A DNA stretch of 25,755 bases, from UHGV virus genome UHGV-0287771. The stretch is one strand, 5' to 3'. A program made the translations under genes and the position numbers. The stretch is from a virus. The notes beneath the pieces were generated by a model. It was not told the DNA's origin. It ran no database searches and saw nothing but the letters and a program-made list of their open reading frames with translations. Shown here piece by piece: positions 20,532 to 25,755 of the stretch; position 1 is the stretch's first letter, and every line of letters starts with the position of its first letter.

Positions 20532-21017
20532 TTATCTGATGTTACTGCTACTGTTGCATGTTACCGTGTTTTCAAATCCTGAATTGCAGTTTGTATATGT
20601 GTCAACGCGTGTTGGGTAAGGTTGAGTTATAACAGGCTGGCGCGCTTTTTGCTCAATTGCTTGCATAGTGTTTACAGCCTGATAATTCAATAAAGCCTGC
20701 TGGAATGCTTGGCTTTGTGCTATTTGTTGGGCTTGTTCTTGGCTTTGTAATTGAACATAAAGATTCTGAAGCTCAAGTCTTGCCTGTGCGTCACTTATCT
20801 TGCCTTCATCGACACCTTGCCCGAGCATCTTTGCAGCAAGGACATACAGCTTAGGTGTTGGTGCTGATGCCATGCGTGAGTCGTTTTTCACACTGGCATC
20901 AAGGCAATTAGCCATATCGCTAAGCTTTTGATAGCGTTGTTCGCAACTTGCTTGATAGTCACTTACTTTTGCGCATCCAACCAGCAGAATCGGGATAATT
21001 AACAGTGATTTTTTCAT
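20532..21017 (-). CDS. lipoprotein (candidate superinfection-exclusion/moron protein), 161 aa
   Basis: Strong SD AAGGAGAG 8 nt upstream of ATG (minus strand, 21017); signal peptide with lipobox MKKSLLIIPILLVGC; Gln-rich helical body; in the slot of the P22 sieA/immI region. Confidence 0.7.
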   Translation of the reverse strand: MKKSLLIIPILLVGCAKVSDYQASCEQRYQKLSDMANCLDASVKNDSRMASAPTPKLYVLAAKMLGQGVDEGKISDAQARLELQNLYVQLQSQEQAQQIAQSQAFQQALLNYQAVNTMQAIEQKARQPVITQPYPTRVDTYTNCNSGFENTVTCNSSSNIR

Positions 21018-21087
21018 ATGGTTAACTCTCCTTAGTTTTTCACAGGATATCATGAAGGCAATACCATTTTAGCCGGAAACTAGATTT

Positions 21088-21357
21088 CTATGTTTCCTTT
21101 TTATTATTGCTATACATGGTCTTAAGCGTATCAAAGACAATTTTCTTAACTATCTCAGATTGTTGTTCTGCCATACGCTCTGCATCGTCAATGTAAACAG
21201 ATGCAGAGCTTTGTTTAGCCAATGATTCTTCAATCGCTGCAATTATCTCTGAGTTCAGAGACCTGTTATTCATCTTCGCACGCTGTTTAATTTTCGCGTG
21301 GAGTTCATGCGGAAGTCTCAAGTGAAACTGCGCCTCGTCGTATTTGCTGTACATCAT
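21088..21357 (-). CDS. mnt: Mnt-like ribbon-helix-helix repressor (Arc/MetJ family)
   Basis: Translation matches recalled P22 Mnt along its length (RSLNSEII ... DDAERMAEQQSEIVKKIVFDTLK vs RSMNSELL ... NDAERLADEQSELVKKMVFDTLK); start placed at the Met preceded by an SD-like GTGAGG. Confidence 0.8.
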   Translation of the reverse strand: MMYSKYDEAQFHLRLPHELHAKIKQRAKMNNRSLNSEIIAAIEESLAKQSSASVYIDDAERMAEQQSEIVKKIVFDTLKTMYSNNKKET

Positions 21358-21489
21358 TGATGCCTCACCAGTTGGGTGGAATGGCATCGTAAAACCTACT
21401 GGATAAATCAACAATCGTACCACTTCGGTATGTAACTATAGCTTACCGCAGCTCTGCTGTGGGGATTAATTTCGCCTGGAGCACATCAA

Positions 21490-23981: not shown

Positions 23982-24019
23982 TAGATATAACCTGTCTTGA
24001 TCAGTCAATTCACAACATA

Positions 24020-24039
24020 TACTGTATATAAAAACAGTA
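24020..24039 (+). promoter_or_regulatory. LexA operator (SOS box) overlapping a likely promoter
   Basis: TACTGTATATAAAAACAGTA: CTGT-N8-ACAG with AT-rich spacer, a near-perfect match to the E. coli LexA box consensus TACTG(TA)5CAGTA; 15 nt upstream of the next start codon. Confidence 0.75.
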
Positions 24040-24054: not shown

Positions 24055-24294
24055 ATGATAAGACGTAACGCCATAGCGGAGGCTTTCAGAGCCTCCATTT
24101 CTATAAATCCTAAAGGTTATCAATACCTTTACACGGATTCTTTCATCTCCGAACTACAGCGGAGGGGTATCCATTTCTCAGAGAAGGAGGCTAACAACTG
24201 GATATCGAGAGAGCAGACGTACTTTGTCGACAAGACGCCGGACCATAGCGAAAACAGGTTGTGGATGCTGGCGAATATGGGGAGGGTGATCTAA
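24055..24294 (+). CDS. hypothetical protein, 79 aa, first gene of the LexA-box operon
   Basis: ORF directly downstream of the LexA box; stop overlaps the start of the next gene (TAATG); function not recognised. Confidence 0.5.
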   Translation: MIRRNAIAEAFRASISINPKGYQYLYTDSFISELQRRGIHFSEKEANNWISREQTYFVDKTPDHSENRLWMLANMGRVI

Positions 24295-24611
24295 TGGGCT
24301 TTCCTTCACCCGCGACGGATTACGTTGAGCAGCGACTGTCCGTTAACTCGATCTGCAATGTCGGCCCTAACACCCGCGTTTTCGAAAGGGATGGCGGTTA
24401 TGTTGTGCTGGATATTTCCCTGAAGCCAAAGCAGGGTAGTCAGGTTCTGATCCAGCACGGCGGCGGTACGGAGCTTGCCACGCTGAGAGGAAAGTCACTG
24501 ATAACCGAAGACGGCGAAGCGATCGAGGGAGATGCTCTCGACGATGTCACTGTCATCGGTGTCGTGACGTTTACTATCTGCGATGTTCGTTCTGATAATT
24601 CTATTATTTAA
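24294..24611 (+). CDS. UmuD'-like (S24 LexA/UmuD-family fold) protein, apparently lacking the catalytic Ser
   Basis: Starts M-GFPSPATDYVEQR, matching the UmuD/MucA motif GFPSPAADYVEQR just after the UmuD self-cleavage site; GGGGAGGG SD 7 nt upstream; no G-D-S-M serine motif seen by eye, Lys retained in RGKSL. Confidence 0.6.
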   Translation: MGFPSPATDYVEQRLSVNSICNVGPNTRVFERDGGYVVLDISLKPKQGSQVLIQHGGGTELATLRGKSLITEDGEAIEGDALDDVTVIGVVTFTICDVRSDNSII

Positions 24612-24622
24612 CTGGGGTATAT

Positions 24623-25288
24623 ATGGCGCTGAAGCTATTAGCCAATAATAACGCAAAGAGTGTTCTCGCTGCGGGTATTAGCGCGTCCGCTACCGTTATT
24701 ACCGTGGGGTCGGGTGCAGGTGCTTTATTCCCCGCGCCGGTATCGGGAGAAAGCTATTTCAAATTAACGGTAACCGACGCCGCAACGAAAACAATCAACG
24801 AAATTATGCATGTCACATCTGTATCTGGTGACGTGATGACGGTAATTCGTGGTCAGGAAGGAACCACGGCGCGCGTATGGTCAACGAATGACATTGTCGC
24901 AAATTTAATGACCGCCGGCTCATTGTTATCGTTCCTGCAGATCAGCAATAACCTGTCAGAAATTAAAGATGCCGGTGAGGATGCGGTAAATGAAGCCCGT
25001 TATAACCTCGGAATATCTGATTCCTCTGGTTTTGTCGGGCGTTCTCTTGGCGCTCCAAAAGCGTTCTATGCAAACGGCACCTATACGCGCTCTCCTCTGG
25101 CCCGTTATGCAAAAGTAACGTTGGTCGGAGGTGGCGGCGGCGGTGGCCGGGCGGGTTCTCAGGCCGGTATTGCTGGCGCAGCTCCCGGATCCGGTGGTGG
25201 TGGCGCGTATGACCTTGGGTTTACCGGTACGGCATTTACCGGTGGTGATGGTGCTACTGGCATGGCGATCGTGGAAGAATTCGCGTAA
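24623..25288 (+). CDS. Gly-rich protein, 221 aa; N-terminal part reminiscent of phage fibre N-termini; possibly a truncated gene
   Basis: ORF 11 nt after the UmuD'-like gene; C-terminal poly-Gly/Gly-X stretch (VGGGGGGGRAGSQAGIAGAAPGSGGGG...); followed by ~430 bp without a convincing ORF before the att core. Confidence 0.5.
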   Translation: MALKLLANNNAKSVLAAGISASATVITVGSGAGALFPAPVSGESYFKLTVTDAATKTINEIMHVTSVSGDVMTVIRGQEGTTARVWSTNDIVANLMTAGSLLSFLQISNNLSEIKDAGEDAVNEARYNLGISDSSGFVGRSLGAPKAFYANGTYTRSPLARYAKVTLVGGGGGGGRAGSQAGIAGAAPGSGGGGAYDLGFTGTAFTGGDGATGMAIVEEFA

Positions 25289-25717
25289 TGGCTTACACTC
25301 CTGCACGACCATCGATGTAATCAGCCCACCACTGCATCATCTACCTGCGCTTATCGAGATACTGAGCATGGTTGTAAATCCCACGCACAGATCCGCCGTT
25401 GGCATGAGCGAGTTGCACTTCGATAGTTTCGTGATGCACCAAGTGATCAAAGTCATGAAATTTAACATCCAAGCCTCCATCGATCGATACTTGCGGTAGT
25501 TGATAAGGAAAAACTATGGTACACAAAGCGTTGCACTGGATTGCAAGGCTTTGTGCTCTTCTGTGGATGTGTGGCTACATGTTTGAAGATCGTTGTGCCG
25601 CATTTGTGACATACACATGACAACATCATGCATCAACTTTCTGTTTGTGCCATCAACTATAGCTTAGTGAATGCGGTTAATGCTTGCTAAAACAGATAGT
25701 TATGATTGGTGCTACAG

Positions 25718-25755
25718 ATTCGTAATGCGAAGGTCGTAGGTTCGACTCCTATTAT
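25718..25755 (+). other. 3' portion of a tRNA-Thr(CGU)-like gene (anticodon loop, T-arm); candidate attR core, truncated by the window end
   Basis: ATTCGTAATGCGAAGGTCGTAGGTTCGACTCCTATTAT contains the anticodon-loop sequence with CGT and a canonical T-arm GGTTCGACTCC; the 5' half of a tRNA is absent upstream (sequence diverges before 25718). Confidence 0.6.

Follow-up and report, generated by a model that had tools for sequence, protein, structure and literature searches.

In the 25,755-nucleotide (nt) stretch of the virus genome UHGV-0287771 (the window, by which we mean the whole stretch), we detected a two-gene cassette near the 3′ end. The first gene encodes a 79-amino-acid (aa) protein, p79, and the second a 105-aa short HumD-like protein, here called mini-UmuD′. 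Both lie behind a LexA box, and the features of the cassette are as follows.

23997-24002 (+): −35 hexamer TTGATC, then a 17-nt spacer; both are as in the Escherichia coli K-12 umuDC promoter.
24020-24039 (+): LexA (SOS) box TACTGTATATAAAAACAGTA, 18/20 to consensus; TACTGT, its left half, also serves as the −10 element.
24055-24294 (+): first cistron, the 79-aa p79 (PHROG 3893, function unknown), predicted to be a stand-alone winged-helix domain.
24281-24286 (+): Shine-Dalgarno GGAGGG for the UmuD′-like gene, read from the sequence within the end of p79, 7 nt before the ATG.
24294-24611 (+): second cistron, the 105-aa mini-UmuD′ (PHROG 3469 "UmuD-like", E 5e-47).
24297-24335 (+): the N-terminal arm, residues 2-14.
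24393-24398 (+): site of the Ser60-loop deletion, between G34 and G35.
24477-24479 (+): Ala62, in the place of Lys97.

The protein encoded by 24294-24611 begins MGFPSPATDYVEQR and contains NTRVFERDGGYVV. It reads M-GFPSPATDYVEQR and hence starts at the N-terminus of mature UmuD′, as an earlier sequence-only reading of this DNA had recognized. ATG 24294 is the true start: the GGAGGG is suitably spaced, the ATG overlaps the p79 stop (TAATG), 41 diverse homologues have a nearly invariant M1-G2 (nearly every homologue starts MGFPSPA), and in 76 of the 80 loci fetched via the upstream gene p79 the −1 offset of the second gene is the same. Through the TAATG overlap, mini-UmuD′ is predicted to be translationally coupled to p79.

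Pairwise and PDB sequence searches aligned only residues 2-43, which match UmuD 25-66 (BLASTP E 3e-10; PDB UmuD/UmuD′ sequence match E 1e-4). A profile of the 41 diverse family members, compared by hhalign with E. coli UmuD (reference sequence checked against E. coli K-12), extended the match to 113 columns (98.6%, E 1.3e-15). An AlphaFold2 model, a check put forward by the sequence-only reading, had a predicted local distance difference test score of 85.5 and recovered the S24 fold, with UmuD′ (1ay9/1umu) as the best PDB match at a template modelling (TM) score of 0.66; further fold matches were the C-terminal domains of LexA, λ CI and 186 CI. Because of the hhalign profile match and the fold match of the model, the 105-aa protein is best described as a genuine, if modelled, S24-fold relative of UmuD′. 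Pfam, including PF00717, gave no match for it at E<=1, and none of the 41 diverse relatives matched PF00717 at E<=0.01. The relationship to S24 thus rests on hhalign, the NCBIfam HumD model, PHROGs and the fold search; the PF00717 alignment by which the missing serine was to be confirmed yielded nothing, and that absence was established with hhalign and MAFFT instead.

In both alignments a gap of 11 residues spans UmuD D59-G69, including the nucleophilic Ser60, and no insertion occurs at this site in any of 363 family sequences, so that the proposed loss of the serine is borne out. The accompanying statement that the Lys region (RGKSL) is retained did not hold. UmuD Lys97 aligns with Ala62 by hhalign and by the family column counts (A211, G15, V9, T3 and K3 of 247 unique sequences), and the RGKSL lysine, K67, aligns with UmuD R102 in a variable turn, where phage RothC and most relatives have Arg. 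We found no cleavable (Cys/Ala)-Gly site behind an N-terminal segment, as the protein starts Met-Gly and only Met1 is removable. Because the Ser60 loop, Lys97 and the N-terminal tail are all missing, mini-UmuD′ is predicted to be incapable of self-cleavage, and its description as a pre-trimmed, catalytically dead UmuD′ homologue stands. The arm (G2-F3-P4-S5-P6-A7, D9-Y10 and E12) is invariant or nearly so in the short family, in HumD and in UmuD. The short family has in addition a strongly conserved motif of its own, LITxDGExIEGxxLD, and the arm and ITxDGExIEGxxLD are invariant down to ~30% identity. Two divergent relatives were observed: a 127-aa protein (P0260) that kept the loop and lost both Ser and Lys, an intermediate, and a chimera (P0167) that joins a UmuD-like N-terminal tail with a Cys-Gly site to a short-family body.

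The box TACTGTATATAAAAACAGTA is the only CTGT-N8-ACAG in the window, and the pattern matched in 0 of 100 shuffles. It is identical over 20/20 positions to the E. coli K-12 umuDC operator, the layout TTGATC / 17-nt spacer / TACTGT box is common to RothC, mEp390, HK140 and CobraSix, and a LexA box occupies the same place in every related locus examined. LexA control, which the sequence-only reading had assumed, is therefore plausible given this single box, and the cassette is plausibly driven by a umuDC-type LexA-repressed promoter. With such a promoter, mini-UmuD′ should appear only after substantial DNA damage. A terminator-like hairpin lies inside the p79 coding sequence (24078-24096, +; GGAGGCTTTCAGAGCCTCC followed by a T-rich run); one was found against 1.7 in shuffles, which is chance level, and it is not conserved in RothC. 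Many IMG/VR loci carry a second CTGT-N8-ACAG ~430-580 nt downstream of the mini-UmuD′ stop (e.g., at 3873 in L013, 3743 in L018 and 3898 in L033), and no second site was found in the window.

Protein length is uniform across the short family (105-108 aa), which comprises 214 representatives at 50% clustering and 735 clusters at 90%. The 90%-identity cluster of mini-UmuD′ holds 3207 member sequences, mostly from Klebsiella pneumoniae. Family members occur in phages of Klebsiella, Escherichia, Enterobacter, Cronobacter, Erwinia and Pantoea and in phage-plasmids, and the backbones that carry the cassette are P22-like phages, lambdoid siphoviruses and phage-plasmids, in at least five genera. The family is present in 148 of 5426 complete E. 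coli genomes (~2.7%), where PGAP names it "S24/S26 family peptidase" or "hypothetical". Pairwise ratios of nonsynonymous to synonymous substitution rates (dN/dS) against dozens of homologues were 0.06-0.19, with dS up to >1, and those of p79 were similar. This purifying selection indicates that the gene is more than a chance open reading frame (ORF). In the literature we found no study on the short mini-UmuD′ family or on p79.

We detected 850 homologues of p79, nearly all exactly 79 aa long and all unannotated, and searches of Pfam, NCBIfam and PADLOC related p79 to no named family by sequence. The order p79 then UmuD′-like gene, with the 1-nt overlap, recurs in phages of Klebsiella, Cronobacter, Erwinia, Pantoea and E. 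coli. When the UmuD′-like protein was used to collect 80 IMG/VR loci, ~65 of them proved to have p79, and in ~12 the LexA box stands directly before the UmuD′-like gene in place of p79. We considered p79 as a DinI/ImpC-like modulator of RecA and rejected this, given that no DinI family of Pfam or NCBIfam matched and the predicted topology is winged-helix. A protein that looked like a natural p79-UmuD′ fusion, or "Rosetta stone" (P0175), was also set aside, as its middle segment departs from the p79 consensus in the manner of a frameshift product. In mEp390 (L007) and HK140 (L012), the region ~909-1236 shows a DinI-like gene that is divergent from the p79/UmuD′-like cassette, with a CTGT-N8-ACAG (LexA-type) site between them. 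The 79-aa ORF of mEp390 (1262-1501) is unannotated, and a 129-nt minus-strand ORF is annotated there instead.

The nearest characterized relative of mini-UmuD′ is HumD of phage P1. Residues 1-100 matched the HumD-type genes of P1, P7 and N15 by tblastn, and residues 1-101 matched the NCBIfam model NF051876 ("HumD family translesion DNA polymerase"; 46.6 bits, E 3e-12). According to the P1 GenBank record, HumD "functionally complements E. coli UmuD′", and in later papers, including PMC7092418, which cite McLenigan et al. 1999, it is presented as an already-activated, shorter UmuD. Within this type of protein, complementation of UmuD′, dimerization and binding to UmuC and RecA filaments are known only from P1 HumD. 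The genomic slots are shared as well: the short-family gene stands after tail-fibre genes next to the attachment site (att), as do N15 gp26 and the HK140 gene, and in a Citrobacter phage-plasmid it stands just before the phd antitoxin gene, as in humD-phd-doc of P1. In HK140, p79 precedes a 129-aa HumD-type protein.

We tentatively favour the reading, to which we give slightly less than an even chance, that mini-UmuD′, trimmed to a minimal S24 β-core, serves host UmuC as a pre-activated, HumD-like surrogate of UmuD′. It draws on the full-length homology to UmuD′ and HumD (hhalign, NF051876, tblastn and fold), on an arm that stays invariant though no cleavage occurs, on a promoter and operator that match those of umuDC, on the genomic slots shared with HumD-type genes and the p79 gene before that of HK140, on the reports that HumD is already activated and complements UmuD′, on the strong purifying selection and, thinly, on Enterobacter phage CobraSix, in which a short-family gene occupies the umuD slot before umuC. 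Under this reading, inactivation of LexA after DNA damage would let the cassette make mini-UmuD′, and methionine aminopeptidase would probably strip Met1, the next residue being Gly. The exposed G-F-P-S-P-A would be identical to the end made by RecA*-stimulated UmuD cleavage. The protein would then dimerize and present its arm to host UmuC, supplying UmuD′ function without waiting for the slow RecA*-dependent cleavage of UmuD, and damaged phage or prophage DNA would then be copied by translesion synthesis in the course of SOS induction, as has been proposed for P1 HumD. The protein p79 would belong to this pathway too and probably serve there as a binding partner.

Published work on DNA polymerase V (Pol V) allows the residues that such a surrogate might need to be compared. 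In a cryo-electron microscopy study (PMC9926225), Phe203 of the RecA L2 loop enters a UmuD pocket of Y52, residue 54 and F94, with an acidic patch at D91/E93. A 2025 in-silico model of Pol V (PMC11791011) places the N-terminus of one UmuD′ arm beside the UmuC active site and docks the C-terminal carboxylate of UmuC on UmuD′ S36, T71, K73 and E69, which correspond to UmuD S60, T95, K97 and E93. In that model the two UmuD′ subunits differ, one binding the UmuC C-terminus and the other giving the arm. The same text cites experiments in which armless UmuD′ dimerized and was dead for mutagenesis, and in which changing a single residue, the first of the N-terminus, mattered.

Several observations weigh against a UmuD′ surrogate. 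The RecA-contact residues Y52, F94, D91 and E93 of UmuD are R28, T59, G56 and G58 in mini-UmuD′, and of the residues of the UmuC-C-terminus pocket S60 is deleted and E93, T95 and K97 are G58, E60 and A62. The NF051876 score of 46.6 bits is far under the curated equivalog cut-off of 120 bits, which P1 HumD passes with 221.5 bits. The absence of an adjacent UmuC, noted in the sequence-only reading, is general: there is none in the window, and none within 3 kb of the short-family gene in any of 80 related viral loci. In CobraSix (L011, 1447-3059), a LexA box precedes a short-family gene for 101 aa, which overlaps by 1 nt a gene for a 422-aa UmuC sharing 85% identity with that of E. coli K-12; no other phage among 50,697 phage records has a short gene beside umuC, and the short gene of CobraSix is without the GFPSPA arm. 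Since CobraSix is a single case with a host-like UmuC and an arm-less short gene, we gave it little weight as proof of a UmuC partnership; the phage seems to have acquired a host-type umuC downstream of a mini-UmuD′ gene. Lastly, the role of the near-obligatory p79 is left unexplained by the surrogate reading, as by every other reading considered here.

The lost contacts leave room for a different role, which we consider somewhat unlikely, in which mini-UmuD′ modulates Pol V or UmuD and does not replace UmuD′. In one version it would damp error-prone synthesis by competing for UmuC or by forming heterodimers with host UmuD or UmuD′, thereby protecting the phage genome from SOS mutagenesis, which corresponds to the decoy or heterodimer idea of the sequence-only reading; in the other it would donate its arm in a heterodimer with uncleaved host UmuD and so license Pol V without RecA*-mediated cleavage. 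Such roles would agree with the family-wide loss of the equivalents of S60, E93, T95, K97, Y52, F94 and D91 beside an invariant arm, with the retention of Glu93 and Lys97 in HumD-type proteins, which complement UmuD′, and with the different roles of the two UmuD′ subunits in the Pol V model; the P0167 chimera shows, moreover, that UmuD and short-family gene types exchange parts. However, the pocket argument comes from a computational model and not from a solved Pol V structure, in CobraSix a family member takes the place of umuD ahead of umuC, and the slots, regulation and partner that the short family has in common with HumD-type genes suggest equivalence. The more specific proposal that mini-UmuD′ and p79 together form a phage device that rewires host Pol V, by blocking its assembly or by pairing with uncleaved UmuD, with p79 a previously unrecognized winged-helix component of the mutasome pathway, is in our view unlikely.

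An SOS-triggered role in the prophage switch, with p79 and/or mini-UmuD′ targeting the phage repressor or LexA/RecA* so as to promote or modulate induction, is disfavoured and improbable. LexA-controlled antirepressors are known from 186 (Tum), N15 (AntC) and the Gifsy phages, and a LexA-boxed cassette of small genes at a prophage end would fit among them. The winged-helix fold predicted for p79 is frequent in DNA- and protein-binding regulators, and S24 domains mediate the dimerization of CI and LexA, so a variant can be imagined in which the degenerate S24 domain pairs with that of a repressor; the non-catalytic 186 CI domain is among the fold matches. Yet neither cassette protein matched an antirepressor family in Pfam, PHROG, NCBIfam or PADLOC. 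The CI of the related phage RothC, used for comparison since the immunity region of this P22-like phage lies outside the window, is of the cleavable type, with a helix-turn-helix and a Peptidase_S24 domain with GDSM and Lys. The spread of the cassette across unrelated phage types in at least five genera favours a conserved host target, and the arm is identical to that of host UmuD′, whose known partner is UmuC.

That the gene is a decaying remnant of a captured umuD or humD without a function of its own is very improbable, for although its catalytic loop is deleted internally, the dyad is lost and broken copies exist elsewhere (e.g., the HumD-type pseudogene of BTP1 and 68-aa fragments in L065 and L066), the selection analysis (dN/dS of 0.06-0.19, dS up to >1, dozens of homologues) rules out a pseudogene or dead relic, and the uniform length, the invariance of the arm and of ITxDGExIEGxxLD to ~30% identity, the conserved translational coupling and operator and the thousands of copies (3207 in its 90% cluster) all speak against it. 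In Salmonella phage BTP1 (L006, 1966-2351), a LexA box is followed by the frame-shifted HumD-type remnant between gtrA and int; this remnant is unannotated and overlaps an annotated minus-strand hypothetical gene, BTP1_017.

The surroundings of the cassette identify the window as the late region of a P22-like temperate phage of Enterobacteriaceae. We found genes for the portal, the coat and the ejection proteins, and a tailspike of 757 aa that carries the P22 head-binding domain; the nearest phage records are Klebsiella phages, and the exact 105-aa and 79-aa proteins have been deposited from E. coli too. Downstream of mini-UmuD′ two further features were noted.

24623-25288 (+): possible third cistron, encoding a 221-aa protein, starting 12 nt after the mini-UmuD′ stop.
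~25709-25755 (last ~45 nt of the window): 3′ part of a tRNA by appearance, the likely att core.

The N-terminal ~110 aa of the 221-aa protein resemble tail fibres (several PHROG families, E 1e-18 to 1e-28), and its Gly-rich C-terminus has a weak match to Gly_rich_2 (PF21722). RothC encodes a 348-aa Gly_rich_2 homologue in the same position, and no terminator-like site was found between the mini-UmuD′ gene and this ORF. The ORF may be a third, SOS-controlled cistron, an operon membership that we infer only; such control would be odd for a tail-fibre-like protein.

Part of 25690-25755 is matched in 5016 of 5426 complete E. coli genomes, and the full 66 nt are present in 133 E. coli genomes, with an integrase remnant adjoining in the one examined. 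ARAGORN and Rfam gave no call on the att core because the tRNA-like segment is truncated; we take the tRNA to be tRNA-Thr (thrW). The tRNA-like end looks like what is expected for P22-like integration. Given this end and the tailspike gene that precedes the cassette, the cassette sits at the extreme end of the prophage, between tailspike and att. Between the ejection-protein genes and the tailspike, two minus-strand ORFs, 20532-21053 (−; 172-173 aa) and 21088-21423 (−; 110-111 aa), occupy the position of the P22 immI/sieA-type accessory genes; the latter shows weak YlcI/YnfO-N and TprA-like similarity (E 1e-6).

Cleavage of UmuD is a timing checkpoint that holds back error-prone Pol V in the SOS response, and the speed and strength of mutagenesis in a damaged cell can be altered by mobile elements that bring in an already cleaved UmuD′. 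Should mini-UmuD′ activate Pol V, antibiotics could induce more mutagenesis in K. pneumoniae that carries the prophage; should it antagonize Pol V, the protein would be a naturally occurring anti-mutator. The short family also amounts to a natural dissection of UmuD′, with the arm invariant and the relic active site discarded, so that separate roles in Pol V of the arm and of the Ser60/Lys97 pocket become directly testable. We regard the family as of moderate interest, being abundant in K. pneumoniae prophages and bearing on SOS mutagenesis.

Among known systems, E. coli UmuD′ (PDB 1UMU, 1AY9 and 1I4V) shares with mini-UmuD′ the S24 β-fold (TM 0.66) and the arm GFPSPAxDYVEQR, of which 12 of 13 positions are identical, and E. 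coli umuDC shares the −35 hexamer, the spacing and the 20-nt operator with the cassette. Unlike UmuD′, mini-UmuD′ would be made directly and not by cleavage, lacks the Ser-Lys dyad, is not followed by umuC and does not match PF00717. The C-terminal domain of 186 CI (PDB 2FKD) has an S24-like fold with no proteolytic role; it belongs to a DNA-binding repressor, is without the UmuD′-type arm and has negligible sequence similarity to mini-UmuD′. In impCAB, a plasmid mutagenesis operon, impC is likewise a small ORF before a UmuD-like gene in one SOS-regulated operon, and extra accessory proteins are encoded beside plasmid mutagenesis operons according to PMC7092418; the likeness of p79 to impC would be positional only, as p79 is predicted to be a winged-helix protein.

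The closest parallels are P1 HumD and N15 gp26, which likewise start MGFPSPA, are encoded directly downstream of a LexA box, lack a cognate umuC, belong to temperate phages or phage-plasmids, and share with mini-UmuD′ an acidic C-terminal tail of the ...DDxPxI type that is missing from UmuD. This precedent was overlooked when the protein was first described as a pre-processed UmuD′ homologue, an architecture that itself holds. Mini-UmuD′ differs in its length (105 aa versus 129 aa for HumD), with the 11-residue deletion taking the Ser60 loop. The HumD-type proteins of P1, N15 and HK140 keep Glu93, Lys97, Ser/Thr at position 60, Tyr52 and an aromatic residue (Y/F) at 94, whereas mini-UmuD′ has G58, A62, a deletion of Ser60, R28 and T59, and such states dominate the short family. 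The short-family gene is usually preceded by p79, while P1 and N15 are without it and HK140 has it. On these comparisons, the short family is most readily understood as a shorter sister family, a reduced branch of the HumD lineage. The pre-processed, LexA-regulated type of UmuD′ is thus already known in the form of HumD, and what is new here is its short variant with the conserved partner p79.

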